A DNA stretch of 64,000 nt. Origin: Terriglobia bacterium (GTDB lineage: Bacteria > Acidobacteriota > Terriglobia > 20CM-2-55-15). The stretch covers positions 256,001 through 320,000 of the forward strand of contig CBDAOY010000008.1 of assembly GCA_965198225.1 (NCBI GenBank). Direction: 5' to 3'. This document shows positions 6,295 through 61,267 of this stretch, one piece after another; position 1 is the first letter of the stretch, and every line of letters starts with the position of its first letter. A model generated the notes under the pieces. That model did not search any database. It was not told the DNA's origin and was given only the letters and a program-made list of their open reading frames with translations. A program made the position numbers and the translations under genes.

Positions 6295-6355
6295 TTAGCA
6301 GCCCGTGGCAGAACTCTACAGGGCCGCGTTACGGCCAAACGGGGCCGGATTCTAG
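6295..6355 (+). mobile_element. Truncated left end of a CTAG-type structured element (subtype of 28952-29228)
   Basis: TTAG-CAGCCCGTGGCAGAA...CGCGTTACGGC...CCGGATTCTAG matches the left end of the 28952 copy and stops at its internal CTAG. Confidence 0.7.
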
Positions 6356-6626
6356 TGACCTGTAACAATGCTATCGGTACCAGCGTTCGGCGGAACGGCG
6401 TCGGATTTTAGGAGTGACGCCCGAGCCAATGCTGTTTCATTGCGAGGACGTCACGACACCGAAGACGGCGCCGTTGGGCCGAACCCTTCGGGCCGATGGG
6501 GGTTGCGGGCGATCTCTTTGTCGGAAGCCGTCACCGATGAAAGAGCATCGCTTTCCGTCTCCCTCCGCGACCTCGCCCGCAAGACCCATCGGCGATGGTG
6601 CCGATAGCACTGTTACAGGCCACTTG
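6352..6626 (+). mobile_element. About 275-bp non-autonomous structured element (MITE-like), copy A
   Basis: About 36-bp terminal inverted arms CTAGTGACCTGTAACAATGCTATCGG / CCGATAGCACTGTTACAGGCCACTTG; homologous to copies at 17503, 28952 and 60993. Confidence 0.85.
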
Positions 6627-6805
6627 GGATAGATCAAGCATGCCGGTGACTGCACGACTGACTCTCTCGGCGAAGGTTGGTCGTGCACTGAATCGCGATG
6701 TTTTCGGGGATTCAACTGGCCGGGCAGACAATATCTTTCCCAGAACGCCTTCATGTGCTATCGTTCTGTAACCAAACAACATAGGCATAATAAACAGGGG
6801 GCTCG

Positions 6806-9202
6806 ATGAAGTCGGTTTCCGTTTGGGTTGGAGTGCTTGGCGTGCTGGTTGTGTCCGCCGGAAGTGCCTGGGGGCAAACCCCGAGCACAATGCCGGTTTC
6901 ATCGCAGCAGGCGCTGGTCAACGACTACTGCTCGGGTTGCCACAACGACGCGATTCGTGAAGGTGGGTTTTCATGGGCCACGATCGACCTGGCCGATCCC
7001 GCCCGGAACGCGGAACAAGCCGAAAAGGTGATTCGCAAATTGCGGGCAGGCATGATGCCGCCGGCGGGCGCAACACGACCGGCGGTCGCTGACGCGAAGG
7101 CGCTTGCACTGTCGATTGAAACCGCGATCGATCGATCCGCTTCGGAGTACCCGTTTGCCGGCGCTCCCGAACTCCATCGGCTCAATCGAACAGAATACCG
7201 TAACTCGGTGCGCGAGTTGCTCGACTTGGATGTGGATGTTTCTTCGATGCTTCCGACCGACCAGATGAGCGGCGGCTTCGACAACATCTCCGACGTGCTC
7301 GCTGTGACTCCGGCGCTGGTGCAGGGATACGTCCGGGCGGCAGGCAAGATCAGCCGGCTGGCGATCGGTGACCCTGAAGTGGCCCCGACCATGTCGATGT
7401 ACACCGTGCCGAAGGTCGTCAACCAGCTGCGGCACGTCATGGGCACGCCGCTGGGAACGCGGGGCGGAACCTCCGTAGTCTACAACTTCCCCGCCGACGG
7501 CGATTACACGTTCAAGGTAGCCTTCTACCACGACTTCATCACCGAGCTGTTTGGCGCCAATCTGCCCGAGAACCTCCAGGGCCAGGAACTGGAGATCTCC
7601 CTAGACGGGGCCAGGGTGGCCATCTTCGAACTCGATCCAGAACTCTCCGAACCCGAAGGCACGTTGACGACAGAGTCGGTCCGGATCACGGCGGGCGCGC
7701 ATCGCGTTGCGGCCGCATTCATCTCGAAGTTCGACGGGCCGACCGAGGATGAGTTCCGCCAGGTGGAGCAGTCGATGATTGACGTCACCGGCGCGGTGCC
7801 CGGCCTAGTCGCCCTGCCACACCTGCACACACTGACTATTGCCGGCCCGTTCGTCGTGACAGGAATGTCGGAGACGGCATCCCGTCAGAAGATATTCCGG
7901 TGCAGGCCCGCGTCGGCCGACGCGGAACTGGACTGCGCGAAGAACATCCTGGGGACTCTGGCACGGCAGGCATACCGCCGGCCGATCTCGAACACCGACG
8001 TGGACTACCTGATCAACCACTACGGGGCCGGACGTGAAGAGGGAGACTTCGAGGCCGGGATCCAGATGGGCGTGCAGGCGATCCTCGGGCATCCGGAGTT
8101 TGTCTTCCGATTCGAGAAGACGCCGTCAAACGTCGGGCCAGGGACGAACTACCAGATCAGCGACCTGGAGCTGGCGTCCCGCATGGCGTATTTCCTCTGG
8201 AGCAGCCTGCCCGACGAGGAATTGCTGTCGCTGGCATCGGAGGGAAGGCTCGCCGAGCCCGGGGTGGTGGAACAGCAGGTCCGCCGCATGCTGGTGGATC
8301 CGCGCTCGGCTGCGCTGTCGGACAATTTCGCGTTCCAGTGGTTGCGCCTCCAGACGGTAAAGGAGGCCCAGCCCGAGGCGCTCGTGTTCCCGGAATTCAC
8401 GAGGAACCTCGGCGAGTCGATGACCGAAGAAACGAAGCTGCTCTTCGATAGCATCATGCGCGAAGACCGCAGCGTGATCGACCTGCTGACGGCGGACTAC
8501 ACGTTCGTCGACGAGGTGCTCGCGAAACACTACGGCATCCCGAACGTGCTGGGAAGCCGGTTCAGGCGCGTTGGGGTGACCGACCAGAACCGTTTCGGTC
8601 TGCTTGGACACGGAAGCGTCCTGACGTTGACGTCGCTGGCGAACAGAACGTCTCCCGTCCAGCGGGGCAAGTACGTCATGGAGGTCCTGATCGGATCGCC
8701 CCCGCCTGCGCCGCCCCCGGTCGTTCCCCCCTTGAAGGAGGCGGTGGATAACGAGGTCGTCCTCTCTGTCAGAGAGCGGATGATCCGGCACCGGGAAAAC
8801 CCCGCCTGCTCGGCATGTCACCAGATGATGGATCCGATCGGTCTGACTCTGGAGAACTTCGACGCGATCGGCCGGTGGCGTGCGAACGACAGCGGGTCTC
8901 GCATCGACCCGTCGGCCGAGATGTACGACGGGACGCCGCTCGACGGACCCGCCAGCCTGCGCGAGGCAGTCCTCGCTCGCTCCGAAGCGTTCATCGGAAC
9001 CTTTACGGAGCATCTTCTTTCATATGGTCTGGGCCGCGTGCTCAGTTATCGGGACATGCCCACGGTCCGGTCGATCGCCCGCGAGGCCGCGCAGAACGAC
9101 AAACGTTTTTCGTCGTTCATCCTCGGCGTCGTGAAGAGCGTGCCGTTCCGCTTGAGGCTCGCCGACGAAGAATACACGGCAGATCAGTTGAGAAACCGGT
9201 AA
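6806..9202 (+). CDS. DUF1592/DUF1588/DUF1587-type (PSD) protein with two c-type haem motifs
   Basis: Signal peptide; CSGCH and CSACH; paralog of 2624-5149. Confidence 0.88.
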   Translation: MKSVSVWVGVLGVLVVSAGSAWGQTPSTMPVSSQQALVNDYCSGCHNDAIREGGFSWATIDLADPARNAEQAEKVIRKLRAGMMPPAGATRPAVADAKALALSIETAIDRSASEYPFAGAPELHRLNRTEYRNSVRELLDLDVDVSSMLPTDQMSGGFDNISDVLAVTPALVQGYVRAAGKISRLAIGDPEVAPTMSMYTVPKVVNQLRHVMGTPLGTRGGTSVVYNFPADGDYTFKVAFYHDFITELFGANLPENLQGQELEISLDGARVAIFELDPELSEPEGTLTTESVRITAGAHRVAAAFISKFDGPTEDEFRQVEQSMIDVTGAVPGLVALPHLHTLTIAGPFVVTGMSETASRQKIFRCRPASADAELDCAKNILGTLARQAYRRPISNTDVDYLINHYGAGREEGDFEAGIQMGVQAILGHPEFVFRFEKTPSNVGPGTNYQISDLELASRMAYFLWSSLPDEELLSLASEGRLAEPGVVEQQVRRMLVDPRSAALSDNFAFQWLRLQTVKEAQPEALVFPEFTRNLGESMTEETKLLFDSIMREDRSVIDLLTADYTFVDEVLAKHYGIPNVLGSRFRRVGVTDQNRFGLLGHGSVLTLTSLANRTSPVQRGKYVMEVLIGSPPPAPPPVVPPLKEAVDNEVVLSVRERMIRHRENPACSACHQMMDPIGLTLENFDAIGRWRANDSGSRIDPSAEMYDGTPLDGPASLREAVLARSEAFIGTFTEHLLSYGLGRVLSYRDMPTVRSIAREAAQNDKRFSSFILGVVKSVPFRLRLADEEYTADQLRNR

Positions 9203-9217
9203 GGAGAGGAAACATCC

Positions 9218-10588
9218 ATGTTCATCACGAAGAAACACCTATCCCGACGCACCTTCCTGACGGGTGTGGGCGCGACCGTTGCGCTGCCGTTTCTCGAGTC
9301 GATGGTGCCTGCGCAGACGCCACAACGTCTGACCGCAGCCAACCCTCGAACTCGCCTGGCGTGCCTGGAAATGGTACACGGCAGCGCCGGCAGTACGCAG
9401 TACGGGATCGAGCACAACTACTGGATGCCGCCGACCGAAGGCGCCGATTTCGAGTTCGGATACATCCTGGAGCCGCTCGAGAGCTTCCGGGACTACATCA
9501 CGCTGGTCACCCAGACCGACCAGCGCCCGGCCGAAGCGTGGACGGCGGAGGAAGAAGGGGCCGACCACTTCCGTTCCAGCGCCGTGTTCCTGACGGCCGC
9601 TCACCCGAAGCAGACCGAGGGGTCCGATGTCCGGGCAGGGACGTCGATCGATCAGATCTATGCGAACCGGTTCGGTCAGGACACGCCGCTCCCCTCGATT
9701 CAGCTGTGCATCGAGAACGTGGATGCGACGGGTAACTGCGGGTACCACTACAGCTGTGTTTACATGAACTCGATCAGCTGGTCGTCGCCCGAGACCCCGC
9801 TGCCGATGACCATCGACCCGCGAATGGCGTTCGAAGATCTGTTCGGCGCCGGCGGCTCACCCGAGGCGCGGGCGGCCCGGCGACGCGCCAACCAGAGCAT
9901 CCTCGATGGCGTTACGCTCGAAGTGGCGCGGCTCCGGAAAGATCTGGGGCGGCGCGATCAGAACAGGCTGAACGACTACCTGGAGAGCGTCCGCGAGATC
10001 GAGCGGCGCATCGAAAAGATCGAGCAATACAACGCCAGCGGTGCGGAGCGGGAGCTGCCGTCGGCGCCGATCGGCGTGCCCGATTCCTGGGAAGAGCACG
10101 TCAAGATCATGTTCGACTTGCAGGTCCTCGCGTTCTCTGCGGAAGTGACGCGCGTTTCGTCGCACAAGCTCAGCCGGGACGTGAGCAATCGCGTGTTCGA
10201 AGCGAGCGGGAACAAGACGCCGTTCCATTCGGCATCGCACCATGGGTCGACGCCGAAGGGGATCGAGGATTACACGAAGATCAACCGCTACCACATCGAC
10301 CTGTTCGGGTATTTCCTCGACAAGCTCCGGAACACTCCAGATGGAGACGGGAACCTCCTGGATCATTCCATGGTCCTGTACGGCAGCCCGATGGGCGATT
10401 CCAACGTGCACGCGCACAAGCGAGTGCCGATGTTGCTGGTCGGCCATGCCAATGGTCAGCTCAAAGGGAATTGGCATGTCCGCGCACCGGATGAGACCCC
10501 GACCGCCAACGTGCTGCTCGCCTTGCTGCACAAGCTGGGGATCGAACAGGACATCATCGGCGACAGTACGGGAGTCTTGTCGATATAG
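9218..10588 (+). CDS. DUF1552 (HxxSHH) family protein, Tat-exported
   Basis: SRRTFLTG Tat motif; FHSASHH; paralog of 1191-2570. Confidence 0.88.
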   Translation: MFITKKHLSRRTFLTGVGATVALPFLESMVPAQTPQRLTAANPRTRLACLEMVHGSAGSTQYGIEHNYWMPPTEGADFEFGYILEPLESFRDYITLVTQTDQRPAEAWTAEEEGADHFRSSAVFLTAAHPKQTEGSDVRAGTSIDQIYANRFGQDTPLPSIQLCIENVDATGNCGYHYSCVYMNSISWSSPETPLPMTIDPRMAFEDLFGAGGSPEARAARRRANQSILDGVTLEVARLRKDLGRRDQNRLNDYLESVREIERRIEKIEQYNASGAERELPSAPIGVPDSWEEHVKIMFDLQVLAFSAEVTRVSSHKLSRDVSNRVFEASGNKTPFHSASHHGSTPKGIEDYTKINRYHIDLFGYFLDKLRNTPDGDGNLLDHSMVLYGSPMGDSNVHAHKRVPMLLVGHANGQLKGNWHVRAPDETPTANVLLALLHKLGIEQDIIGDSTGVLSI

Positions 10589-10639
10589 AACCGACCGTTG
10601 AAACAGGTTTAAGAGAAGCGTTAGTTAAAGGAAGAGACA

Positions 10640-12205
10640 ATGAAAACACTCGGACTAAGCTTACTTGCTCTACTCGTCGCGACCACGGCGATCGTTGCCG
10701 CGGCCAACGAGACCGAACTCGTCGAAGCCGCGATGCGCGGGGACACGGCTGAGGTACGCTCGTTGCTGGACGCCGGGGCCGACGTCAATGCGGTTTACGG
10801 TGACGGCAGCACGGCACTGCATTGGGCTGCCGGCAACGGTGATCTGGAACTGAGCCGCCTGCTGCTCGATGCTGGCGCCAGGGTCGATGCCGTCACACGG
10901 ATCGGATCGATGACCCCGCTGTTCATGGCGGCCAGGAGCGGGGAGGCTGGCGTGATCGAGACACTGCTGGAGGCAGGTGCGAGCGCGGACGAGGCCAACG
11001 ACAACGGGACGACGGTCTTGATGAGTGCGGCGGCTTCCGGAAACGTCGAAGCGGTTCGGGCGCTCATCGAAGCCGGTGCGGATGTCAATGCCACCGAGGA
11101 GACCAACGGTCAGACTGCGTTGATGTTTGCGGCCACCCTCAACCGTGCGGAAGCGATCCAGGCTCTGATCTCCAACGGCGCGGACACGGGCGTAATGACG
11201 AAGGTTTCCAAGCTACCGAACCGTGGCCGAGGCGGGCGGCGGTCCGGTCCGGCCGTCGTCGGCGGGATGACGGCATTGCACTTCGCGTGCCGGGACGGAC
11301 AGATGGATGCCGTCCGCGAACTCGTGGCCGGCGGAGCCGACATCAACGCAGTCACGGAGTCGAAACAGACCCCTCCGATCACGGAAGCCATCCTCAATGC
11401 CAATCTCGACATCGCCAAGTTCCTGCTCGGCAACGGCGCCGATGTGAACATTCCGAACGGCGACGGTCTGCTGCCGCTTTTTGCCACCTTGGACATCCAG
11501 TGGAGGCAAAACACCTGGTATCCGCAGCCGAACGTGTCGGAAGAGAGGACCAGTTATCTGGATCTCATGGAGGAAATCCTGGCCCATGGTGCCGACGTGA
11601 ATGCCCGGTTGGGAAAGAGGCTGTGGTACCGGACTTTTCGCTACAGCGGGGGCTGGATCGATCCGGCCGGCTCAACTGCCCTCTGGCGTGCAGCAGAGGC
11701 GAACGATGTGGACGCGATGCGTCTGCTCGCCTCCCACGGCGCCAATCCGACGATTCCGACTGCCCAGGGCACGACTCCCCTGATGGTCGCAGCAGGTTAC
11801 GGCTTCACGTGGCAGGCGACCAACATCAAGCCGGATTCGCGAATCGACGCCCTCAGGCACCTGGTTGAAGAGCTCGGCGCCGACGTCAATGGTAAGGACC
11901 TGCAGGATTACACGGCCTTGCACGGAGCTGCCTACGTGGGCGACGACGACGCCATCATGTACCTGGTGGCCAGAGGCGCCGACGTCGGCGCGCGGGCGAG
12001 TGCCCGCCTCGGGTCCCGGGCCCCGACCCCTGTCGAGCCTGGTACCGGAGACACGGTAACCGACTTTGCGAACGGTCCCCACGAGAAGTCCCTGTTGTTC
12101 CCGGACACGGTCCGGCTGCTGGAGTATCTCGGCTCGGAAAACTCCCACGACTGCCGGTCGACGGGGTGCGTGAACAACACGAAGGAGGATCGGCCACGTC
12201 GTTAG
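10640..12205 (+). CDS. Secreted ankyrin-repeat protein
   Basis: Signal peptide; many G-TALH-AA / GADVN repeats. Confidence 0.9.
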   Translation: MKTLGLSLLALLVATTAIVAAANETELVEAAMRGDTAEVRSLLDAGADVNAVYGDGSTALHWAAGNGDLELSRLLLDAGARVDAVTRIGSMTPLFMAARSGEAGVIETLLEAGASADEANDNGTTVLMSAAASGNVEAVRALIEAGADVNATEETNGQTALMFAATLNRAEAIQALISNGADTGVMTKVSKLPNRGRGGRRSGPAVVGGMTALHFACRDGQMDAVRELVAGGADINAVTESKQTPPITEAILNANLDIAKFLLGNGADVNIPNGDGLLPLFATLDIQWRQNTWYPQPNVSEERTSYLDLMEEILAHGADVNARLGKRLWYRTFRYSGGWIDPAGSTALWRAAEANDVDAMRLLASHGANPTIPTAQGTTPLMVAAGYGFTWQATNIKPDSRIDALRHLVEELGADVNGKDLQDYTALHGAAYVGDDDAIMYLVARGADVGARASARLGSRAPTPVEPGTGDTVTDFANGPHEKSLLFPDTVRLLEYLGSENSHDCRSTGCVNNTKEDRPRR

Positions 12206-12230
12206 GAACGGCATGAGATGAGCGGAAAGG

Positions 12231-12255
12231 GCCCGGGAACATTCCCGGGCTTTTT
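12231..12255 (+). terminator. Probable intrinsic terminator
   Basis: GCCCGGGAA-CA-TTCCCGGGC stem followed by TTTTT after the ankyrin gene. Confidence 0.65.
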
Positions 12256-12272
12256 CATGGGGGAATCCAGGA

Positions 12273-13217: not shown

Positions 13218-13234
13218 CGAAAGGAGAGGCAGAA

Positions 13235-14572: not shown

Positions 14573-15429
14573 GCCCTGCGCTGTCCTTCGAGGAAGGTCT
14601 CAATATCAAGGACGTAACAGCAGCAGGAAAACTTTCGAGGAATCGGAAGCCCGGCGATTTTTTATTCGTTCCTCAGAACCTGGATCGGGTCCACCTTCAG
14701 AGCCTTCCGTGTCGGAAGGTACCCGGACACCATCGAGATTGCCGCCAGCAAGCCGGTGAAGGCGAGGAACGGACCTGTTTCCAATCCGACGGTCCCAAAC
14801 AGCGCGCTTTCCATCAAGCGACCGAGTGCGAACGCCAGCGCAATGCCTAGAGCAAGCCCTACGGCCGTCAACCGCCTCGCACGGGCCAGCATCAGTCCCA
14901 GGATGTTGCCCGAAGAGGCCCCCAGGGCTGTGCGGATTCCGATCTCATGGACCCGCTGATTCACCAAGTATGTCATCAGTCCGTAGATACCCATCGATGA
15001 GATCAGCAGGGCCAGGGCCCCGAGAACGCTCATGATCGACCCGGCGTACTGAAGGCCGATCGTCGTGTCCTGGATCGCACGTTTCATCGTCCGGACTTCG
15101 TAGATCGGCTGTGACGGGTCGACGCGGAGGATGGCTTCGCGCACGGGCTGGGCGTGCAAGGTGGTATCGTCCGCCGTCCGCAATCCGATGGCGATATCCA
15201 GCCGCGGTGCCTGCGCATAAGGGAGGTAGGCGAGGCGATCAGCAGGACCAGGCCCGCTCCGAACTGCATAACCCCGAGGAATGCCGGCGCTCCGGGATCG
15301 ACCAGCCCTTCGGAGAGCGATCGGACTCCTACGTCCCACCCCCTGTTGTCGTCGGGATACTGCTCCTGTAACCGCTCCCCGATGACCCGCATCTCGGAAG
15401 CCGCGTCCTCGAGTTGAGGTATCTGGCAC

Positions 15430-16748
15430 CAGTAGTGTCCGACAGATTTAGGACCTCCCGGTCCTAAAGTTAGAACTGACGCGATGTAGCGCGCTTGTCA
15501 AGGTGTTAACGATTTGATTTCTGTGCGGCCTTCGCGGCAGCCTTTCCAGAGGTTTCTGGGAGGCACCGATGCACGCTGGCAAGCTGGTCTTCGCACAAGT
15601 CATGGAGTTCGCGCCGTGGTATACGTTCCGTCGTCTGGTGACCAAGTACCGCGGCAATTTCAACGTCCGCACATTCAGTTGCCTGGACCAGTTCCTATGC
15701 ATGGCCTTCGCTCAGCTGACCTATCGGGAGAGCCTGCGCGACATTCAAGCCTGCTTGCGAGCCCAACCCGCCAAGCTCTACCACCTGGGGTTGCACGGGA
15801 AGGTCAGCCGCAGTGCATTGGCCGATGCCAACGAGTCTCGCGACTGGCGCATCTACGGAGAGTTCGCTCAGGCGCTGATCCGCATCGCACGCCGCTTGTA
15901 TGCCCACGAGCCGCTCGGGATCGACCTGGACGAAACCGTCTACGCGCTCGACTCCACGATGATCAGTCTGTGCTTGTCGCTGTTCCCTTGGGCGCACTTT
16001 CGAAAGACCGAAGCCGCGGTGAAGCTTCATACGCTGCTCGACCTGCGTGGCGGTATCCCCAGCTTCATCCACATCTCCGAAGGCAGGCTGCACGACGTCA
16101 ACGTTCTCGACCTGCTCATCGCCGAAGCCGGTGCTTTCTACGTGATGGACCGCGGCTATCTCGACTTCGATCGCCTCTACACCTTCAATCAAGCCGGGAG
16201 CTTCTTCGTCACCCGTGCTCGATCCGACTTCGCGTTCAAGCGCATCTACTCCCAACCCGTCGACCGACACACGGGCCTCATCTGCGATCAGACTATCGAA
16301 CTGACCGTATTTCGCTCCCGCCGCGGCTACCCCGAACGGTTGCGTCGCATTCGTTATCGCGATCCCGAGGGTCGGCGACTGGTTTTCTTGACCAATCACA
16401 TGACGCTCCCAGCCCGGACCATCTGCGAGTTGTATCGCCTGCGCTGGCAGGTGGAGCTGTTCTTCAAATGGATCAAACAGCACCTGCGCATCAAGCGTTT
16501 CTTCGGCACTTCCGAGAACGCCGTCAAAACTCAGGTCTGGGTCGCCGTGAGCGTTTACGTGCTGGTGGCTATCGTGCGTAAAGAACTGAATTTGCCTTTG
16601 TCGTTGCACTCAATGTTACAGATCTTGAGTGTCACACCATTTGAGAATGTGCCTCTTTTTCAGCTGCTTACCGAATCCGGGCTCATCTCAAATCGACACT
16701 CTAACGCTAACCAATTGAATCTATTCTGAAACGTGTCGGACACTACTG
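15430..16748 (+). mobile_element. IS4-family insertion sequence (1319 bp)
   Basis: TIRs CAGTAGTGTCCGACA (15 bp perfect); 9-bp target duplication ATCTGGCAC at 15421-15429 and 16749-16757. Confidence 0.93.
15569..16729 (+). CDS. IS4-family DDE transposase
   Basis: ALDST, VMDRGY and YRLRWQVELFFKWIKQ (YREK) motifs. Confidence 0.93.
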   Translation: MHAGKLVFAQVMEFAPWYTFRRLVTKYRGNFNVRTFSCLDQFLCMAFAQLTYRESLRDIQACLRAQPAKLYHLGLHGKVSRSALADANESRDWRIYGEFAQALIRIARRLYAHEPLGIDLDETVYALDSTMISLCLSLFPWAHFRKTEAAVKLHTLLDLRGGIPSFIHISEGRLHDVNVLDLLIAEAGAFYVMDRGYLDFDRLYTFNQAGSFFVTRARSDFAFKRIYSQPVDRHTGLICDQTIELTVFRSRRGYPERLRRIRYRDPEGRRLVFLTNHMTLPARTICELYRLRWQVELFFKWIKQHLRIKRFFGTSENAVKTQVWVAVSVYVLVAIVRKELNLPLSLHSMLQILSVTPFENVPLFQLLTESGLISNRHSNANQLNLF

Positions 16749-17502
16749 ATCTGGCACCTCTGTTCTCACGCACATCGGGTGGGAAGGCGAGGGGAGACCA
16801 TACCTGTGCGCCGACGGGGAAGTCGAATCCCTCCGGCGCGACGCCGACGACGGTGTATGCCTCGCCGTCGAGCGTGATCGCCTGGCCCAGGACGGAAGGA
16901 TCGGCGCCAAAGCGTCTGCTCCAGAGACCGTGGCCCAGGATCACGCGGTACCGGTTGGCGACCTGCTCTTCTTCGGGCAGGAAGGTTCGGCCCATGACCG
17001 GTTCGACGCCTAGGATTTCGAAGAACCCGGGAGATGCGAACATTCCCTGGATGCGTTCGGGTTCGTCGCGGCCTTCAAGATTGACGTCCCAGTACTCGTA
17101 AGCGGCGAGCGTTTCGTAAACGTCGCTTTGTTCCCGCCAGTCGAGGTAATTGGCCGGTGCAACTGAGAAACCTTCGAACTCGAACAGGCTGTCGGGAGAA
17201 CTCTCAGCGAGCATGACCAAGCGGTCGACGTCCTCGATCGGAAACGGGCGGAGAACGATGGCATCGATCACGCTGAAGATGGCCCCGTTGGCACCCAGGC
17301 CGAAGGCCAGCATGAGGCCGACGCTGGCGCTCAGCAACGGCTGCCGGGCGATCATCCGAAAGGAGAAATGGATATCTTGTTTGAAATTGTGCATTTAGGG
17401 CCTGATCCTCCAGTCCGGGAATCATACGGCTCCCGGCAGGCAAAGGTTCCGCCGAAGACTGCTTTGATTGTAATGACGGAGGTTTTCGAGCGTCTTTAAC
17501 AG

Positions 17503-17771
17503 CTAGTGGCCTGTAACAGAGAGAGTGATAGCGGCGTTGCGAGCGCAACGGTACCGGATTCTAGGAGCGCCGCCCGAGGAAATGCTGCTTCATTGCGAGA
17601 AGGCGCGACGACGAAGACGGTGCTGTTCCGCCGCAACCCGAAGGGACGATGGGCCTTGCCAGCCGCCTAGATGAGTCAGGAAACAGCGATGTTTTCCATC
17701 GGCGACGAGTCGGGAGAGGACCCGCAAGGCCCATCGGCGACGCTGTCACTATCTCTGTTACAGGCCACTGG
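17503..17771 (+). mobile_element. Structured CTAG element, copy B
   Basis: Arms CTAGTGGCCTGTAACAGAGAGAGTGATAGCG / CGCTGTCACTATCTCTGTTACAGGCCACTGG; same internal architecture as the other copies. Confidence 0.85.
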
Positions 17772-28951: not shown

Positions 28952-29228
28952 CCAGCAGCCCGTGGCAGAAGTCTGATGGCTCGCGTTACGGCGGCGTCGC
29001 GCCAGATGCTAGGCGCCGCGCCGACCGATCTGCGGGTCCCGAGAAATGTCGCGTGGCAACAACGCCCGCGTGTGACGCCGCCGTAACCCTCCGGGCGCAC
29101 GGGGGTTGCGGTCGGATACTTTGTTGCTCGTCGTCATGATGAAACCGCATCAGTTCCTCCTCGCGCCTCGTCTCCGCCTCGCAAGACCCGTGCGCGCGAA
29201 CCATCAGACTTCTGCCACTGGCTGCTAG
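28952..29228 (+). mobile_element. Structured CTAG element, copy C (variant arms)
   Basis: Arms CCAGCAGCCCGTGGCAGAAGTCTGATGG / CCATCAGACTTCTGCCACTGGCTGCTAG; right half near-identical to copy D (TCGTCGTCATGATGAAACCGCATCA). Confidence 0.85.
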
Positions 29229-30532
29229 GCGATAGTCACAGCCACGCGGTGCATGACGTTGTTCAGGTAGCCCCGCGGATTCCAGCCGGGCACGATCGGC
29301 GGTTGGGTCCTACCGTTCGAGTCAGTGGCTCGCGCCCACACTTCGTAATAGCCCCGAACGGGAAAACCGATCTCTGTTTCCCACCGTTGCCACGCATACG
29401 GGTTCACCGGTTCCGCCAGTCGGGTGGCGTGCCAGGCCTGTCCGAAGTCGTAACTCACGTCGACACGCGATACCGTTTGGTCGCCCGCCCATGCCTTGCC
29501 CCGGACAGTTACTGTCTGGCCCAGCGGCGCCGTGGTTTCGGTCTCGGGTCGGGTGATCAAAGATTTGACCGGCAAGGAATGGATGATCTCCATTTCCTCC
29601 TGCGGAACATCTGCTCCCGCCTGGACCGGGTACTTGTTGATCCGGTAGGAGTAGCCCGTCATCCCGCGACCGTCGTGCTCTTGGTCGCGAATCTGGATTC
29701 GATTGATCCATTTCGCTGACGCCGAGCCCGGCCATCCGGGTATCACCATGCGGACCGGGAATCCATGGATTGCCGGAACCGGCTGTCCGTTCATTTCCCA
29801 CGCGAGCAGGTTGTAGGGGCTCATCGCTTTCGAAATCGGAACGCCGCGGGACAGGGCGACCAGCTCCGGGTTCCGGCTCAGGTGGACGTCGTCGCAGTGA
29901 TTCGCGGTGTAGACGGCCGTCGGCTTCACGCCCGCAGCAGCGAGCACGTCCGCCATGCTGACCCCGGTCCACCGCGAGCACGCGATCGCGCCGACGGTCC
30001 ACTGCATCCCGCTCGGGTGTGGATCGTAACCGGCCCGCCCGTTTCCGGTGCACTCGAGTTGAAGATTCCAGCTGCGGGTCGGAAAATTCCGCTTGAGGTC
30101 GTCGAGCGAAAGCTCCAGCGGCCGCTCGACCTCGCCGTCGACCACCAGCCTGTAGCCCGTGCTGTCCATCCGCTCGGCCATCGAGCCCATGTTTCCGTTA
30201 TTCCGTACGTAGTGGTATTTGATCGGCGTGACGTCGTCGTCCAGTTGATGCGCCCGGGCTTCAGCCCCGACAGGGCGCTGGTTCAGGACCACAAGGTCTT
30301 TGCCTTGGAGCAGTGGGTGAGTGCCCTCTTGTGCGAGCGCGACGGGAACCAACCCGGAGGGCATGTTCCGCGCGAAAGGGATGTGAGCGCCGACGGCCAC
30401 CATCATTGCCGTCAACCCGGCTCCATTCAGGAAGCCGCGTCGAGTGATCGGATCCGCCTTCCGACCCCAGATCAAAGAGTCTGCCCGCTCCGGGTCCCGG
30501 TATAGCTCGAAGATGTCTGTCTCCCGCTTCAT
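29225..30532 (-). CDS. Sulfite oxidase-family molybdoenzyme (SorA/SoxC-like)
   Basis: TRRGFLN Tat motif; YVRNN, LECTGNGR Mo-ligand Cys, HGFPVR and WNPRGYLNN motifs. Confidence 0.92.
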   Translation of the reverse strand: MKRETDIFELYRDPERADSLIWGRKADPITRRGFLNGAGLTAMMVAVGAHIPFARNMPSGLVPVALAQEGTHPLLQGKDLVVLNQRPVGAEARAHQLDDDVTPIKYHYVRNNGNMGSMAERMDSTGYRLVVDGEVERPLELSLDDLKRNFPTRSWNLQLECTGNGRAGYDPHPSGMQWTVGAIACSRWTGVSMADVLAAAGVKPTAVYTANHCDDVHLSRNPELVALSRGVPISKAMSPYNLLAWEMNGQPVPAIHGFPVRMVIPGWPGSASAKWINRIQIRDQEHDGRGMTGYSYRINKYPVQAGADVPQEEMEIIHSLPVKSLITRPETETTAPLGQTVTVRGKAWAGDQTVSRVDVSYDFGQAWHATRLAEPVNPYAWQRWETEIGFPVRGYYEVWARATDSNGRTQPPIVPGWNPRGYLNNVMHRVAVTIA

Positions 30533-53781: not shown

Positions 53782-54731
53782 CTAAGCGAAAAACCCAACT
53801 GGCAACTGACTACTGACTACCGGATACAACCAATTGTCCGGGTCCGGAAGCGCACCCTGGATGATATCGAAGAACGCACGCTGGATTCTTCCCGTCAGCG
53901 GACCGCGGTTTCCTTCACCGATGGCGATGTGATCGACGGACCGAATCGGTGTGATTTCCGCAGCGGTGCCCGCGAAAAAGAGCTCGTCGGCGATGTAGAC
54001 AGCCACTCGCGGGGAATCGCTTCTTCCCGCACCGTCAACCCCATGTCGGCGGCGATTCGCATGACCGAGTCGCGCGTGATACCCGATAGCACCGAATGTG
54101 CCAGCGATGGGGTGTGAATGACACCGTCGCGAACCAGGAAGAGGTTCTCGCCGCTGCCCTCGCTGACGTATCCCATCGCATCGAGCGCCACTCCCTCCGC
54201 GAAGCCGTTGTGGACGGCTTCCATCTTGATTAGCTGGGAGTTCATGTAGTGCCCGCCGGCTTTGGCGATTGCAGGGAACGTGTTCGGAGCCATACGCGCC
54301 CAGGAAGACACGCATATGTCGACGCCGTTCTCCATGGCATCCGCGCCGAGGTAGGAGCCCCATTCCCAGACGGCGATGTATGTCTCCACCGGAACGCCGA
54401 TCGGGTTCACGCTCAACGTGCCGTAGCCACGCAGGACGACGGGTCGGACGTAGCAGGCTGCCAGCCGGTTTGCAAGGATCGTTTCGATGACCGCACTCGT
54501 CAGCGAAGCCTCATCGTAGGGGATGTCCATGCGGTAGATTCGTGAAGATTCCACCAGGCGGCGGATGTGGTCTTTCAGTCGGAAGACGACGGAGCCCCCC
54601 GGCGCTTCGTAGCACCGGATGCCTTCAAAACAGGATGAGCCGTAGTGGACGACGTGGGAAAGAACGTGTATCTGTGCCTCATCCCAGGAGATGAACTCTC
54701 CGTTTTTCCAGATTGTTTCAGACGGGTTCAA
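53782..54731 (-). CDS. ilvE: Branched-chain amino acid aminotransferase; frameshift near 54000
   Basis: [21 protein letters not shown] and LSGITR in one frame; [17 protein letters not shown] in another. Confidence 0.9.
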
Positions 54732-54897
54732 AAGCGTTCCTCCGTGTAGATCGGCCAAGAGAGGGGACTTATCGGGATACGATTCCCGCGACGCCCGGCA
54801 TGTTATCCTAACTGTCTCGTATCACAAATAAGCCGGGCTTTCGGGACGAGATGCTGCGGATCAGCCGTGGCGCTGCGTTCCTCGCCGAGAACCGCCG

Positions 54898-55422
54898 ATG
54901 CCGCGTCCACGAGTCATTCTGCTTCAGTCTTTGCTGGTGCTGGTTCCGTTGTTGGCCGGCTGTGGCTATCGTTTGGCTGGAGGCAACCTCGCGTCCGGGT
55001 CCGGGCGGAGCATTGCCGTGCCGTTGTTTCAGAACGCCACGACAAACTATCGCATCGAGCAGCGCCTGACCGAAGCCGTTCGCCGCGAACTCATCCAGCG
55101 CACCCAGTACGACGTGCTGCCCGCTTCCGCGGGGGACTTTGTGTTATCGGGGCAGGTGTTGAGTGTGACTTCGATTCCCATCATCTTTACCGACCGGGGA
55201 CGGAGCACCGCCTACACCGTGGCAGTCGAAGTAAGCGTGAGTCTAACCGACAGTCGCGACGGCTCGCTGGTCTTCGCCGACGAGCGTTGGACGTTCCGTG
55301 AAGTCTTCGAGTTGTCGAATGACTCCGAGACCTTTGTTCCGGAAGACGCGGCCGCTATGGATCGCCTCGCCCGTCGCTTCGCTTCTTCCCTGGTTGCGTC
55401 GCTCTTCCACCGAAGTCCGTGA
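54898..55422 (+). CDS. lptE: LPS-assembly lipoprotein LptE family
   Basis: Lipobox LAGCGYRL; upstream of holA. Confidence 0.8.
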   Translation: MPRPRVILLQSLLVLVPLLAGCGYRLAGGNLASGSGRSIAVPLFQNATTNYRIEQRLTEAVRRELIQRTQYDVLPASAGDFVLSGQVLSVTSIPIIFTDRGRSTAYTVAVEVSVSLTDSRDGSLVFADERWTFREVFELSNDSETFVPEDAAAMDRLARRFASSLVASLFHRSP

Positions 55423-56381
55423 AGTTTTCAGAATTTCGAAAAAAGAATGACGCTCCCCCCGGGCATGTCTTCGTGTTCGTGTGCGGAGACGAATTTCTAG
55501 TCGAGGAATCGAAGGAAGTGTGGGCACGGCTTTTCGGCGGGAACTGGGCGGTCGAGAAGACCTCCGCCAAAGAGCTGGATTCCGTCGAGCCGTCCGAGCT
55601 TATGTCGTCGGCGCTGACGCCGCCACTGTTCGGAGAAAGCCGCGTTCTGATGGTCACCAACGCGGGAAAAGTTCCGAAGAAGCGACTCACCCATTTCGCC
55701 GAGATCAACGCCCTGGAGGACTCCTCCCTCAAGATCATCCTTTGCGTCGCCGGCCGGAGGTCGCTCCAGGCGTGGACCAAGACGTTCAAAGTTGTGGAGA
55801 TAGAACCGCTTCGGCCGGCCGATACGATCCGGTGGGTCAAAGAACGGTATGGCGTCCGAGCCGAGGTGGCGAGCTACATTGTCGAGAACATCGGGGCTGA
55901 GCTGTATCCGCTGTACCGGGAATTGGAGAAGCTGCAGACGTACGTGAAGAAAGAACGACCTATAGAGGTGGAAGACGTCGACATGCTGATTCTTCGCTCC
56001 GAGCAGTTCGGACCTTTCGAGTTGGACGACGCCGTGCTCGCACAGGATTATCCGAAGGCGGTTCGTGTCGCCGAAGCCATGATCGAAGAAGGCATGGAGC
56101 CTCTCCAGATACTTGGAAAGCTTGCCGGCCTGTGGCGGAAACTATTCGCCAGCAAACAACTCGTCTCCCGCGGGCGCGGAAGTGAGGTCGGGCGCGCTCT
56201 GGGTGTACACGATTTTGTCGCTGGGAAGCTTCGGAAGGCAGCACCGGGTTTCAGCTCGGAGCAGCTGGCCGTGGGGTTCGGCGAGCTCCTGAAGGCCGAC
56301 AAGGCGTTCAAGAGCACAAGCGCCAGCGCCAGGCCCGAATACACGTTCGACGCCATGCTGTGGAAAATGGTGGGGAAGTAG
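55419..56381 (+). CDS. holA: DNA polymerase III delta subunit
   Basis: TPPLFGESR and ELEKLQTY; lptE-holA-rpsT context. Confidence 0.85.
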   Translation: MKFSEFRKKNDAPPGHVFVFVCGDEFLVEESKEVWARLFGGNWAVEKTSAKELDSVEPSELMSSALTPPLFGESRVLMVTNAGKVPKKRLTHFAEINALEDSSLKIILCVAGRRSLQAWTKTFKVVEIEPLRPADTIRWVKERYGVRAEVASYIVENIGAELYPLYRELEKLQTYVKKERPIEVEDVDMLILRSEQFGPFELDDAVLAQDYPKAVRVAEAMIEEGMEPLQILGKLAGLWRKLFASKQLVSRGRGSEVGRALGVHDFVAGKLRKAAPGFSSEQLAVGFGELLKADKAFKSTSASARPEYTFDAMLWKMVGK

Positions 56382-56383
56382 TC

Positions 56384-56465
56384 CCGACGTTTCTGCTTAG
56401 CCAACACCCGGGGACAGGGCTAGCCCTGTCCCCCTCACATTGGCTCGCTCACGGCTCGTTTCGCG
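56384..56465 (-). repeat. GGGGACAGGGCTAGCCCTGTCCCC repeat, copy 3
   Basis: Perfect palindrome at 56410-56433 with family flanks. Confidence 0.8.
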
Positions 56466-56524
56466 AAGTGAATAACACTTATTGACAACGACAACGGCCT
56501 ACCGATAACGGCCTACGATCCGAA

Positions 56525-56791
56525 TCAAGCCGCCATGGCGTTGACGTTTCGCGTCATGCGGGACTTGTAGCGCCGTGCCGCATTCGCCTTGATAACGCCC
56601 TTCTGAACGGACTTGTCGATCAGGCTGAACGTCTTCGGCAACATCGCCCGGGCGTCGTCGACCTTGCCCTCGGAGATCACCGATTTCAGCTTCTTCAACT
56701 GTGTCTTCAGCTTGCGTCGGTTCATCTGGTTGATGAGTCGTCTCTGCTCGCTTTGTCGGTTCCGCTTTATCGCAGATGCATGGTTTGCCAT
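56525..56791 (-). CDS. rpsT: 30S ribosomal protein S20
   Basis: [13 protein letters not shown]...[16 protein letters not shown]. Confidence 0.96.
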
Positions 56792-56951
56792 TAGCTTCAG
56801 TCTCGAAACGACCATGATAGCAATTGCTTCGCCTGGTGGTCAATCTCACCAGGTGGGACAGACTTGCGGTCGTACCGGCAAAGGCCCCACCGACGGTGGT
56901 CCCCGAGCCCCGCGTGCTATAATTCAGAACGAGTTACGTCCTCAGCCAGGA

Positions 56952-57956
56952 ATGAAGAAAACCATCCCCATCGGCGAAGGCATCGCCGACCTCTTCGGTA
57001 CTTACGACGGGAACATCAAGTATCTGGAATCTCTTCTCAACGTCGAGGTCCATATCGCTCCCGACAACCTGACGGTCGAGGGAGGCGACGAGCAGGTGAC
57101 GTTGGTGGAGCAGTTCATCCAGGACTACGCTCATCTTCGGGCCGAAGGGATCCAGCTTTCGAGCGAAGACCTGAAATCGATCATCCGGATCGTCTCGGAG
57201 GACAACTCGGTGACGTTGCGCGAGGTCGTTGCCCCCCCTCGACAGTTTCAGGTAGGAAAGCGCAGTATCGCGCCCAAGACCCTCAACCAGAAAATCTACA
57301 TGGAAGCCATCGACACCTACGACATGGTCTTCGGCATCGGGCCCGCGGGCACGGGAAAGACTTACTTAGCGGTCGGCATGGCTGTTCGGGAGCTGCTGGC
57401 GAAACGTGTCAGTCGCATCGTGCTGACCCGGCCGGCGGTGGAAGCGGGCGAACGACTGGGTTTTCTGCCCGGGACACTGGAGGAGAAGGTCGATCCCTAC
57501 TTGCGGCCGCTTTATGACGCCCTCTATGACATGCTCGACGCAGATCGGGTCGACCGGTACCTGGAACGTCGCGTGATCGAGATCGCGCCGATCGCGTTCA
57601 TGCGTGGAAGGACGCTGAATGACTCGTTTGTCATCCTCGATGAAGCCCAGAACACGACGTCGGAACAGATGAAAATGTTTCTGACTCGAATAGGCTTCAC
57701 CTCCAAAGCAGTCATCAACGGCGACATTACACAGATCGATCTTCCGTTCGGTAAGACGTCCGGCCTCGTCGAAGCCCGCGATGTTGTCTCCGGTATCGAG
57801 GGGATCGGGTTCGTGACCTTCAACGACCGGGATGTGGTGCGACATCCGCTCGTTCTCCAAATCGTGCGGGCCTACGAGAAATACTTCCCGTGGCGTATGG
57901 GGAGCCAACGAGCGCTGTCGTTCAAACCGCCCGAGGACAAGGGTCACCCCTCATGA
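56952..57956 (+). CDS. PhoH-family ATPase
   Basis: [19 protein letters not shown] and LDEAQN; extended -10 TGCTATAAT at 56915. Confidence 0.94.
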
Positions 57957-58399
57957 GCGCGCCGGCCCCGACATCGACCGAACCGGGAGACCCCGAGCCA
58001 TACCTCCTACTCAACCGGCAGCGTAAACACAGCGTCGACCGGTACGAGCTGTCGGACTTCATAACCCTACTGGTGGACCACCTCCATCCTGCTGGAACGT
58101 TTTCAGTTGTGCTGGTCAGCGACCGCGTGATCCGCGGTCACAACGCGACTTACCGGGGCCTTGATAGGCCGACCGATGTGCTGAGTTTCCCCGGCGACGA
58201 GGGGTACCTGGGCGATGTGCTCATCTCCACGGAAACCGCCTATCATCAGGTCCGACGTTCCCGAACCGTCAGCTTTGAGACCAATCTGAAAAGACTGGCC
58301 TTGCACGGATTGCTGCATCTGATGGGCTACGACCATGAGAGCGATGACGGTGAGATGCGGGCTCTCGAACGTCGCTTGCGCCGGAGATTTCGATGTTGA
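57953..58399 (+). CDS. ybeY: rRNA maturation endoribonuclease YbeY
   Basis: PTDVLSF and [11 protein letters not shown]. Confidence 0.95.
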
Positions 58400-59667
58400 G
58401 CGTGCTGGAGTTCCTGATCGCGGCCGTCCTTGTCGCGTCGTTGCTCGTGATGTCGATCCTCGATTTCGCGCTCGGAGGTGTGAACCAGATCGCGTTGCGA
58501 CGACTCGCCGACGCGTCCAGGTCGAAATCGAGCCCGCTCTGGGCCGCGATGGTCGAGTCGCGAGCGGAGGTGCTGATGGTGATCCACATCAGCATCCAGA
58601 CGCTGCTGATCGCGATAGCCGTGTTGCTCACCGGAGCGTTCCTCCGAGCACCGCTTCATGACGCTCTGGCGCTTCCGGCCGGAGCGGCGACGACTCTCGT
58701 ACTGGTTTTGGTTTTTCGGCAATTGTTACCCCGCGCAGTGGCCATCGGCAATCCTGATGACGTGTTAGCGCGGCTCGTCCCGACCCTGACCGTCCCCTAC
58801 TACCTGCTGCGCCCGCTGGTTCAGTTGATGATGTCGGTCTTGAATCGCTTTCACCGGTGGGAGGAGGAGACTGAGTCCGAAGACGAGGAGGAGGCGTCCG
58901 AAGATGAGATCCAGGCCTTCATCGACGCGGGGCAGGAGGAGGGCATCCTCGAACAGGACGAAGGAGCAATGATCCAGTCCATCGTCCATTTCGGTGACAA
59001 AGCTGCTCTCGAAGTGATGACGCCTCGGCCGCAAATCGTCGCCGCCGACGTCTCCTGGAGTGTGGATCGCACGGTCAACTTGATCGTATCCAACCGTCAT
59101 TCCCGCATTCCCGTCTACCGGACCGAACTGGACAACATGGAAGGTATCCTGCACGAGAGGGACCTGCTGCGGATCTGGAGAAGCGGGGAGCAACTCGACA
59201 ATCTGCGATCCGTCTTGCACCCGGTTCACTTTGTGCCCGAGACCAAGCCGATCGACGACCTGCTGCAGGAAATGAGGGCCGAGGGCCATCAGATCGTCCT
59301 CGTGGTCGACGAGTATGGTGGAATTTCCGGTCTGATCACCGTCGAGGATCTGGTCGAAGAGATCGTCGGCGAGATCAACGACGCGGACTCCGAAGGCGAA
59401 AAGGTGTTCGAAGAGGGTGGAGGCAGCTATCTGGTGCCGGGCGGCCTCGAACTCGACTCGATGGAAGATCGATTGGGGATGCCCCTGGTTGAGGATACCG
59501 AATGCACAACCGTCGGTGGGGCCGTGGTCGAGCTGTTCGGGAGGCTGCCCGCTTCAGGAGAGAAAATCGAACATCGGGGTCTCGCCATAGAGGTCGTCGA
59601 CGCCGACCGGCGGAAGATCCGCAGGATTCGCATCCGATCGATGACGGCTAAAGGGGGCTCCAGGTAA
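58393..59667 (+). CDS. HlyC/CorC (CNNM-CBS-CorC) transporter
   Basis: TM domain, VMTPR, HSRIPVY and VVDEYGG...EDLVEEIVGEI. Confidence 0.92.
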   Translation: MLSVLEFLIAAVLVASLLVMSILDFALGGVNQIALRRLADASRSKSSPLWAAMVESRAEVLMVIHISIQTLLIAIAVLLTGAFLRAPLHDALALPAGAATTLVLVLVFRQLLPRAVAIGNPDDVLARLVPTLTVPYYLLRPLVQLMMSVLNRFHRWEEETESEDEEEASEDEIQAFIDAGQEEGILEQDEGAMIQSIVHFGDKAALEVMTPRPQIVAADVSWSVDRTVNLIVSNRHSRIPVYRTELDNMEGILHERDLLRIWRSGEQLDNLRSVLHPVHFVPETKPIDDLLQEMRAEGHQIVLVVDEYGGISGLITVEDLVEEIVGEINDADSEGEKVFEEGGGSYLVPGGLELDSMEDRLGMPLVEDTECTTVGGAVVELFGRLPASGEKIEHRGLAIEVVDADRRKIRRIRIRSMTAKGGSR

Positions 59668-59671
59668 CTAG

Positions 59672-60992
59672 CAGGCTGCTGAAAAACTTCGTTCGTTAAG
59701 AGAACGAGGGCTTCGATTGGGAATCTCAGAGCAATGAACGCCGAGGTGAATGACGAAAGTGAGAAATCGGTCATCCGATGGAGACGGATTGAGGGGCCAG
59801 GCGATCCAGAGTGGCCTGTGTTGATCCATTCAGCAGGTCTCCATTGTGAGATTCCGTATGCGAACCATGTTGTAGGCGGCCGCGGCGAAAGTGAACATCC
59901 AGCCCACTCGATCCGCCCCGCGATGGCGCGTCTTGCGCATCGTGCCAACGGTCTTCATCCAGCCAAAGATTTCTTCGACGCGCTTGCGCTTCCGTTGACT
60001 GACCCGGTAGCTGTCGTGTCGCACGGTGCGCCGGTCGATCGCAGTGAACTGTCGTTTCTGAGCGACATGAGGTGTCACCTTCAACGCGCGTGCCTGAGAG
60101 ACAAACGACCGGGTGTCGTAGCCCTTGTCCGCACCCAGAGTTGCGCGTCCCGCTCCCGATACGCCGGCAACCATCCTCAAAGCGGCTTCGCGTTCCGCTG
60201 TCCCGGTCGCGGCGGTGACTTCGGCATCGACCACCAGTCCGTGCCGGTTGTCCATGAGCACATGTCCCATGTAATTGAGTTTCGCTTCAGTCCCAAGCGA
60301 CTTGCGAAACATCCGGGCACCCGGGTCCGTCGTCGATTGATGCGTCTGATTCGTCCGCTGTTCCCCGTGAAAATGGACATCGGGGTTCCGCGGCCCACGC
60401 CGGTTCTTTCGCCGCACCTTCCCTTTCTTTCGGAAGCTCTTCTGTCCGGCCCACGCTTCAATCAGCGTTCCGTCCACGCTGAAATGTTCATCCGAAAGCA
60501 GACGGCTCGCGCGTGCCTTCTCCACCACAGCCCGGAAGAACAACTCGGCGACTTCTCCGGCCAACAATCGGTCACGGTTCTTGGTAAACACCGTCGGTAC
60601 CCATACCTCGTCGTCCAGGCTCAGGCCAACGAACCAGCGAAACAGCAGGTTATAGTTCAGCTGCTCCATCAACATCCGTTCACTGCGGACCGTATACAGC
60701 ACCTGCAACAGCAACGCGCGCAGCAACTGCTCGGGCGGAATCGACGGTCGCCCGACACCGGAGTACATCGAATCGAATACGCCCGAAAGCTCCTCCAGAA
60801 CCTCATCGACCATTTCCTTCATCGGTCTCAACGGGTGGTCTTCCGGTACCCGGCGTTCTGGCGATATGTAACTAAACATCGACTCCTGATGGCTCTCCAC
60901 TCCTCGCATTCGGTGCCTCCTGGGCTCGTTTCGCCCAGATTCCCCCGAATCGATGTCAGCGTTGGTCCATCTCGGAGTTTTTCAGCAGCCTG
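59672..60992 (-). mobile_element. IS5-family insertion sequence (1321 bp)
   Basis: 17-bp perfect TIR CAGGCTGCTGAAAAACT; CTAG duplication at 59668-59671 and 60993-60996. Confidence 0.93.
59830..60909 (-). CDS. IS5-family DDE transposase
   Basis: GRPSIPPEQLLRA, SVDGT, GADKGYD and RKRVEEIFGW. Confidence 0.92.
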   Translation of the reverse strand: MRGVESHQESMFSYISPERRVPEDHPLRPMKEMVDEVLEELSGVFDSMYSGVGRPSIPPEQLLRALLLQVLYTVRSERMLMEQLNYNLLFRWFVGLSLDDEVWVPTVFTKNRDRLLAGEVAELFFRAVVEKARASRLLSDEHFSVDGTLIEAWAGQKSFRKKGKVRRKNRRGPRNPDVHFHGEQRTNQTHQSTTDPGARMFRKSLGTEAKLNYMGHVLMDNRHGLVVDAEVTAATGTAEREAALRMVAGVSGAGRATLGADKGYDTRSFVSQARALKVTPHVAQKRQFTAIDRRTVRHDSYRVSQRKRKRVEEIFGWMKTVGTMRKTRHRGADRVGWMFTFAAAAYNMVRIRNLTMETC

Positions 60993-61267
60993 CTAGTGGC
61001 CTGTAACGGAGATATCGGTACCAGCGTTGCGGTGGAACGGCACCGGATTCTAGGAGCCGACGACGAGGTAATGCTCCTACATTGCGAGGAGGAGAGACAA
61101 CGAAGACGGTGCCGTTCCGCCGCAACCCTCCGGGCCGATGGGGGTTGGGGTCGATCTCTTTGTCGTTCGTCGTCATGATGAAACCGCATCAATTTCTCCT
61201 CTCTCCTCGACCTCGACTGGCAAGACCCATCGGCGATGGTGCCGATATCTCCGTTACAGGCCACTAG
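60993..61267 (+). mobile_element. Structured CTAG element, copy D (both CTAG intact)
   Basis: CTAGTGGCCTGTAACGGAGATATCGG / CCGATATCTCCGTTACAGGCCACTAG, perfect 26-bp arms. Confidence 0.9.

Follow-up and report, generated by a model that had tools for sequence, protein, structure and literature searches.

Short repeats in a Terriglobia bacterium genome: probable IS630-mobilised MITEs with a hairpin core probably under selection

The window analysed here is the whole stretch of 64,000 nucleotides from a Terriglobia bacterium (contig CBDAOY010000008.1, positions 256001-320000, which is contig C8 of the 6.4-Mb source genome, G000). It contains four copies, A to D, of a repeat of 267 to 278 bp that is almost certainly a MITE (miniature inverted-repeat transposable element) of IS630. 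The interpretation favoured overall, and considered probable, is that of a MITE mobilised by IS630-family transposases whose hairpin core is under selection. The element is an imperfect palindrome of about 275 bp composed of a 32-nt terminal stem, domain 1, a small central hairpin, and domain 2. Domain 1 forms a rod of about 45 bp, built of G-C pairs in alternation with four to five tandem G.A steps. There is no transposase gene, and stops occur in every frame in most subfamilies. An earlier reading made from the sequence alone had placed four copies in the window; all were present and could be aligned over their whole length with a mean column identity of 76%. Four is the correct number for the window, whereas the genome holds 169 loci.

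Abundance, ends and target site

The 169 loci were obtained, after merging, from a blastn search of the source genome with the four copies, and 100 of them were 255 to 300 bp long. When the 106 loci of 245 to 300 bp were clustered, they fell into subfamilies A (40 copies), E (18), B (15), D (9), C1 (8), D2 (6), and C2 (5), with five singles, and identity within subfamilies was 0.90 to 0.96. Profile searches gave 130 domain-1 and 112 domain-2 units genome-wide. Overlap of more than 30 nt with a predicted gene was absent for 96 of the 106 copies, the gene positions being those of rough gene calls (4768 genes, 82% coding). No match to copy A was found by blastn in a plasmid collection.

Copies of the A, B, and D subfamilies start with TAGTGRCCTGTAAC, and those of the C and E subfamilies start with TAGCAGCCCGTGGCAGAA; read by eye, these two end types of the source genome have 12 of 18 positions in common. 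A search for the first of these motifs outside the 169 loci revealed a CTAG-flanked insertion sequence (IS) of 1131 bp with ends of the A/B/D type, present in three genome copies that are 100% identical over the 1131 bp. The IS encodes a protein of 349 amino acids which matched NF033545, the IS630 family transposase, with 257 bits at an E-value of 2.2e-76 (cut-off, 100 bits), as well as PF13358 for the DDE domain and HTH_32, HTH_23, and HTH_29 for N-terminal helix-turn-helix domains, all above their cut-offs. The first 16 to 17 nt are common to both ends of the IS and to the A/B/D copies, with about 23 of 31 positions shared overall, while the inner parts of the two IS ends agree with each other at only about 10 positions out of 17 (both by eye). 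A second IS630 member was also found, with a protein 43.5% identical to the first and with ends resembling those of the F-type copy and of copies in another genus. A transposase scan of named genomes (source genome left out) gave only relatives at 66 to 80% identity, from many phyla. Since the ends are common to the repeats and to IS630-type insertion sequences, and since the repeats are non-autonomous, they were deduced to be MITEs. This revises two claims of the sequence-only reading, which had taken the terminal inverted repeats not to be conserved in sequence and had offered an unknown protein as one possible partner: the outer terminal repeat is conserved, and because it matches that of a resident IS630-family IS, the mobilising protein is not an unknown one. 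The idea that the MITE core derives from internal sequence of the partner IS was rejected, as nhmmer gave no match between the two at E up to 10.

Insertion at CTAG had also been proposed. Among the 98 copies for which both termini could be placed, CTAG flanked the left end in 66, the right end in 70, and both ends in 48. The match to CTAG is exact on both sides for those 48 copies, and the remaining copies depart from it on at least one side. The tetranucleotide is strongly avoided in this genome, with 3394 occurrences observed against 22925 expected from base composition.

Apart from the full copies, 24 mini palindromes of about 23 nt were found genome-wide that consist only of the outer parts of the two terminal repeats, TAGTGRCCTGT joined to TACAGGYCACTA (for example at C4:330358, C8:771746, and C9:1014132 of the source genome). 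CTAG was present on both sides in 10 of the 24. They may be remnants left after the palindromic body was lost, or minimal elements.

Compensating changes and tandem G.A steps

The fold was analysed with two covariance models (16 and 17 seeds), to which the window copies and 49 loci were aligned, as non-redundant copies drawn from several genera; family-wide, 50 domain-1 sequences were left after filtering at <93% identity. For domain 1 (57 sequences), 96.0% of the cells were standard-paired compared to 88.8% after shuffling, and changes on both sides were observed at 18 of 25 pairs (shuffled mean, 6.7), a number reached by none of 500 shuffles. For domain 2 (43 sequences, 41 distinct), the corresponding values were 95.5% and 84.9%, with changes on both sides at 11 of 23 pairs, reached by 3 of 500 shuffles. 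The result is overstated by the shuffle control, both through the relatedness of the sequences and through the fitting of the alignments to the structure of the models. The control in which partners are slid alone keeps the relatedness, and the main weight was put on it: cells changed on both sides numbered 111 in domain 1 and 71 in domain 2, against 8 to 18 and 5 to 22, respectively, with partners slid (by 1 to 3 columns in domain 1). On this evidence, we consider it likely that the fold is under selection.

Several structural details of the sequence-only reading were borne out. The inner stems described there as covarying do so in the covariance-model alignments, and the terminal arms are as quoted, with a T.G wobble and a G.A mismatch at the same two positions in copies A and D and in copy B; five of the positions around these two differ on both sides between the A/D and B arms. 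The CCC-loop-GGG hairpin between the domains is present, with 98.8% of its cells paired. Folded as single-stranded DNA, copy D gave −82.1 kcal/mol (z = −9.5) for the plus strand and −77.8 kcal/mol (z = −9.1) for the minus strand, energies matched by none of 200 dinucleotide shuffles of either strand. The claim that a fold is conserved in place of a sequence stands for the fold itself, which is kept by compensating changes rather than by sequence; the outer terminal repeat is conserved in sequence.

The G.A steps claimed for domain 1 were found to be real, provided that one base is bulged. In 54 of the 57 sequences (three with short arms were dropped), the inner stem comprised 404 Watson-Crick pairs, 345 G.A, 43 G.U, and 53 other mismatches, with a further 61 positions bulged; the scoring of this alignment favoured G.A, and the register was set by the flanking G-C pairs. 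G.A was much commoner than G.G and A.A. The outermost step was G.A/A.G in 52 and 48 of the 57 sequences and the innermost in 50 and 39 of the 57. At the middle steps the subfamilies differ, some having G.A (as in copy D) and others Watson-Crick or wobble pairs in the same register (as in copy A). A further G.A/A.G step lies beside the long outer stem, where GGATTC faces GAAGAC (alignment read by eye). The zipper proposed for the minus strand of domain 2 was seen in 41 of 43 sequences, with 391 Watson-Crick pairs and 276 G.A in the inner stem and a mean arm score of 26.3 compared to 13.0 ± 5.8 with shuffled arms; the plus strand of the same stem gave 312 plain mismatches. The G.A steps act as pair equivalents. 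The period of three in the GAG/GAC arms was also considered as coding sequence, and a peptide product was rejected, since none of the frames stays open from one subfamily to the next.

The hairpins that CGAG-repeat DNA forms from G:C and sheared G:A pairs are described as thermally stable (Novotny, Plavec and Kocman 2023, PMC10085684), and they likewise have consecutive G:C and G:A pairs in a repeating motif. Domain 1 has a similar alternation, for example CGACGACGAG facing CGAGGAGGAG, although one arm has GAC where the CGAG-block motif has GAG. The published hairpins are oligonucleotides from a human promoter studied by nuclear magnetic resonance, whereas the pattern here lies inside a bacterial transposon and is a pattern of sequence only.

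The opposite strands of the two zippers follow from the relation between the domains. The domain-1 model matched domain 2 on the opposite strand with up to 50.3 bits (in the window at 6489-6591 on the minus strand, 31.7 bits), and the domain-2 model matched domain 1 on the opposite strand with up to 57.1 bits. These reciprocal matches led to the conclusion that domain 2 is domain 1 duplicated in inverted orientation and since diverged, with the small hairpin between them marking the centre of the former palindrome. The pattern of zippers on opposite strands, as first described, is real; inverted paralogy accounts for it, and no separate design is involved.

Spread of the core and the level of selection

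Relatives of copy D were detected in 17 genomes out of 40 related ones, and in its own family in 15 out of 23 (source genome not counted). Of 34 genomes of the family, 21 contained matches to the domain-1 model, and five of these had between 108 and at least 111 matches each. The same core was found between at least six end types across this one bacterial family, other genera having quite different terminal repeats. Elements with domain 1 only or domain 2 only exist; in sister species and in some elements of the source genome, the interior of domain 2 is swapped for unrelated sequence with the outer stem kept; and one chimeric element has the left end of one type and the right end of another. 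For 16 seed elements, the mean pairwise identity was 0.70 for each domain and 0.67 to 0.70 for the outer 16 nt of the ends, compared to 0.46 to 0.47 for the inner ends. Within an element, the arms were complementary at 28 to 32 of 32 positions in 11 of these elements, the arm register not being located by script in the other 5 of the 16. Two loci of a genome from another genus (L003 and L020 of G020) carry copies 98.2 to 98.5% identical to subfamily A, although a close relative of the partner IS was looked for there and not found. These near-identical copies hint at possible horizontal transfer of the MITE.

The level at which selection may act was deduced from the resident copies. Within seven subfamilies (101 copies), substitutions per site were 0.0241 at paired and 0.0285 at unpaired positions, so that resident copies decay almost neutrally; changes to G.U numbered 114 and those to A.C 83, and at 50 sites a change was accompanied by a change in the partner that kept the pair Watson-Crick, compared to 13 that became mismatched. 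The orientation of copies relative to incoming transcripts was not biased (45 sense, 37 antisense; p = 0.44), and neither was that of copies adjoining gene starts (45 versus 48; p = 0.84). Given this almost neutral decay and the unbiased orientation, we place selection on propagation rather than on a domesticated RNA, and we infer that the fold is kept along the lineages that go on transposing and not in each resident copy. IS630-family transposases probably move the elements in trans into CTAG-like sites. As the most likely reason for the selection, we propose that the hairpins would be extruded as single-stranded DNA or as a cruciform, so that the transposase would find both ends of this short, stiff element side by side, and that the mismatches would keep the element from becoming a perfect long palindrome. 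That the fold serves mobility at the DNA level in this or a similar way is put forward tentatively, as possible rather than probable. A stronger form, in which the rod of domain 1 would be a structure-specific cis element for IS630-type transposases or a host factor acting on folded single-stranded DNA or a cruciform, is considered rather unlikely. Were it true, the need for domain 1 as a structural cis element would explain why the same fold is carried between many terminal repeats throughout the family, and a cut-and-paste system of the IS630/Tc1 type would have its first described cis requirement that depends on structure.

In addition to the overstated shuffle control, several observations weigh against the interpretation as an IS630-mobilised MITE with a selected core. 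No IS with the C/E end type was found in the source genome. An empty site for copy D was sought in three genomes of the same genus, and none was readable, the gene order upstream of era being different; as no empty site was found, mobility is inferred rather than seen, and so is the role of the fold in transposition. The flanks are a further difficulty. IS630 elements duplicate TA within CTAG, and textbook duplication predicts equal dinucleotides on both sides. Flanks that deviate from CTAG, by contrast, do so almost only in the two outermost letters of either flank, and the left and right flanks deviate unequally (CCAG/CTAG four times and CTAG/CTGG five times); these variants do not fit a simple TA duplication. 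The pattern would better fit an element AG...CT placed in the middle of CT^AG; CTAG sites themselves cannot reveal a TA duplication. Finally, on the plus strand of domain 1, G.U exceeded A.C (69 versus 16 cells, 16 versus 11 pairs), the cells not being independent events; this excess appears to point to one folded strand, RNA included. In domain 2, on the same strand, the numbers were 28 versus 17 cells and 8 versus 10 pairs.

This asymmetry would fit a core that is a structured RNA acting post-transcriptionally, for example as a processing or stabilising element or as a protein-binding RNA, with transposition only spreading it. The palindromic two-domain layout would then put one G.A-zipper hairpin in the transcript for either orientation of insertion. 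The conservation of the core at the level of the outer terminal repeat, well above that of the inner one, agrees with such a role, and transcripts of bacterial MITEs are described as forming long stem-loops able to affect neighbouring mRNAs (PMC2229807). The unbiased orientation, the paired sites of resident copies changing nearly as fast as the unpaired ones (2.41% versus 2.85%), and the replacement of the domain-2 interior by unrelated sequence in sister species all argue against it. In Rfam 15, the whole window gave only a tRNA at gathering scores, and positions 60900-61350 gave nothing at E up to 10. Contigs from four sponge-metagenome metatranscriptome runs matched pieces of the window at 95 to 100% identity; those that lie wholly inside copy D (61023-61246) belong to a multi-copy element, do not bridge into unique flanks, and could derive from DNA, so that they show neither transcription nor strand, and the window parts left uncovered in these runs carry no meaning. 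The RNA role is considered improbable, and the domesticated structured RNA offered as one possibility by the sequence-only reading found little support.

The covariation could also be a mutational by-product, with one arm of a long inverted repeat templating the repair or synthesis of the other in the absence of selection, whether by template switching in quasi-palindromes or by conversion between arms. Quasi-palindromes are indeed corrected by template switching. The near-complete complementarity of the arms within elements, despite the low identity of the inner terminal repeat between end types, would be explained in this way. It is also in agreement with the ends of the partner IS, which match each other at about 10 of 17 inner positions and so indicate that transposase binding does not require the perfect match seen in the MITE, and with the 50 partner-matched changes against 13 mismatched ones within subfamilies. 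Templating, however, would erase mismatches, while the G.A steps, the bulge, and the T.G and G.A pair near the core persist at fixed positions across subfamilies and genera, with the pairs beside them turning over. Nor would it be expected to prefer G.A over G.G or A.A (345 G.A versus 53 other mismatches), or to yield an asymmetry of G.U over A.C if the mechanism is strand-symmetric. Templating was accordingly given little likelihood. A further explanation is that the core is an independent host repeat, resembling a repetitive extragenic palindrome (REP) or a host-protein site, that was captured repeatedly by IS630-type ends, making the family polyphyletic. Capture would fit the variety of settings in which domain 1 occurs: it has at least six end types, is found by itself or next to other second domains, and in one case lies between mixed ends. 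Against this, no free-standing core was seen: every domain-1 copy whose flanks were inspected, the ends not having been checked for all 130 units of the genome, lies inside terminal repeats or beside a truncated end. In addition, the end types resemble each other (12 of 18 positions in the source genome), which fits divergence better than independent capture. Repeated capture is regarded as highly improbable.

Among known systems, those nearest in kind to the MITE described here are RUP, the CIR repeats, and bcr1. For the RUP element of pneumococcus, IS630-Spn1 is the proposed mobiliser. As described in PMC2229807, RUP is likewise short and non-autonomous, with ends resembling those of a resident IS630-family IS, TA-containing insertion sites, about a hundred intergenic copies, and insertion into other mobile elements; it differs in being 107 bp long with short terminal repeats. 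The accounts of RUP consulted contained no report of G.A-rich stems or of one core shared by several end types; the organisms are unrelated, and the comparison is by description only. In bcr1 of the Bacillus cereus group, compensatory changes likewise keep a cruciform-like structure (PMC3184786), so that a fold-conserving MITE-like repeat is not new. It has 5-bp direct repeats, is reported to be transcribed, and has its structure read at the RNA level, whereas the present MITE has an IS630 partner and a CTAG target. The CIR repeats of Caulobacter and Brucella have a proposed structure of two long inverted repeats that form two arms with a linker, conserved between genera (PMC2229807). They are described with an exposed GANTC methylation motif in the loop and no known transposase partner, and the arms of the present MITE differ in lying inside a long terminal stem and in being inverted copies of each other. 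The Correia or NEMIS elements of Neisseria are 100 to 160 bp long with 24-bp terminal repeats and TA termini, and their transcripts form long stem-loops (PMC2229807); there, an IHF site and cleavage of the RNA by RNase III are described, whereas for the present MITE no orientation-dependent effect is suggested.

No published description was found of this MITE family, of a core that several IS630-type end sets have in common within one bacterial family, or of tandem-G.A stems in such elements, although supplementary MITE catalogues (e.g., PMC11602168) may list the family. The earlier suggestion that the architecture belongs to no described family agrees with these searches and with the lack of an Rfam 15 match, and it has to be narrowed in view of bcr1.

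The usual definition of a MITE rests on conserved ends, the interior being free to vary. In this family the fold of the interior is conserved to the same degree as the outer ends, turnover is seen in the inner ends, and a single core is carried by several IS630-type end sets within one bacterial family. Should the fold be required for movement, the family would offer a testable handle on end pairing in very short elements and also a natural example of G.A-zipper hairpins under selection. For annotation, more than 100 intergenic repeats per genome in this group are explained, together with a noticeable share of the rare CTAG sites.

Copies in the window and their surroundings

The coordinates of the four copies and their domains are given in Table 1. 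Domain 2 of copy B fell below the threshold of the covariance model. Copy A has inserted into an E-type copy, so that 6296-6626 is a nested insertion in which the far side of the E-type copy is not preserved; nested copies were also found at one other locus of the genome (L011).

Table 1. Positions of the MITE copies, their domains, and an adjoining fragment in the window
Feature	Position	Strand	Description
Copy A	6352..6626	+	Subfamily A (40 full copies genome-wide); has terminal repeats and the central CCC-loop-GGG hairpin
Copy A domains	Domain 1, 6384-6492; domain 2, 6493-6594	+	From covariance models
Copy B	17503..17771	+	Subfamily B (15 full copies)
Copy B domains	Domain 1, 17535-17645; domain 2, 17646-17739	+	Interior of domain 2 divergent
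Copy C	28952..29228	+	Subfamily C1, second end type
Copy C domains	Domain 1, 28984-29095; domain 2, 29096-29196	+	From covariance models
Copy D	60993..61267	+	Subfamily D (9 full copies)
Copy D domains	Domain 1, 61025-61134; domain 2, 61135-61235	+	From covariance models
E-type 5' fragment	6296..6351	+	Second end type (TAGCAGCCCGTGGCAGAA...); ends at its own internal CTAG, which is the start of copy A

Two of the copies adjoin genes directly. The right-terminal C of copy C together with TA (29225-29227) forms the TAG stop of a minus-strand molybdopterin oxidoreductase open reading frame (ORF) at 29225-30532; TAG stops naturally coincide with CTAG targets. Copy D, with its terminal CTAG in the region 61264-61270, abuts the ATG of an era-like ORF (61268-62158). 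Just 3' of this gene, at 62160-62345, two inverted copies of a REP-like palindrome (approximately GTAGGTGCGGTCTATGACCGCACCTAC) bracket about 140 bp, and in RNA-library contigs of related strains positions 62179-62316/62322 are exchanged for 23 to 30 other letters. The same palindrome also adjoins several MITE copies elsewhere in the genome.

Copy B lies directly after a region (14662-17394) that has the appearance of a single permease gene interrupted by an insertion sequence. In it, a plus-strand transposase gene (15569-16729; DUF4372 and DDE_Tnp_1) is located between a minus-strand ORF with an FtsX C-terminal domain (14662-15429) and a minus-strand ORF with a MacB periplasmic domain (16660-17394). 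The Pfam content of the window includes PSD/PSCyt domains, DUF1552, duplicated MacB/FtsX permeases, and BshC, from which an Acidobacteriota-like or Planctomycetota-like source could be guessed. The intergenic region containing copy A is flanked by two divergent gene pairs encoding PSD/PSCyt-domain and DUF1552 proteins (2624-5149 and 6806-9202, with 1191-2570 and 9218-10588).

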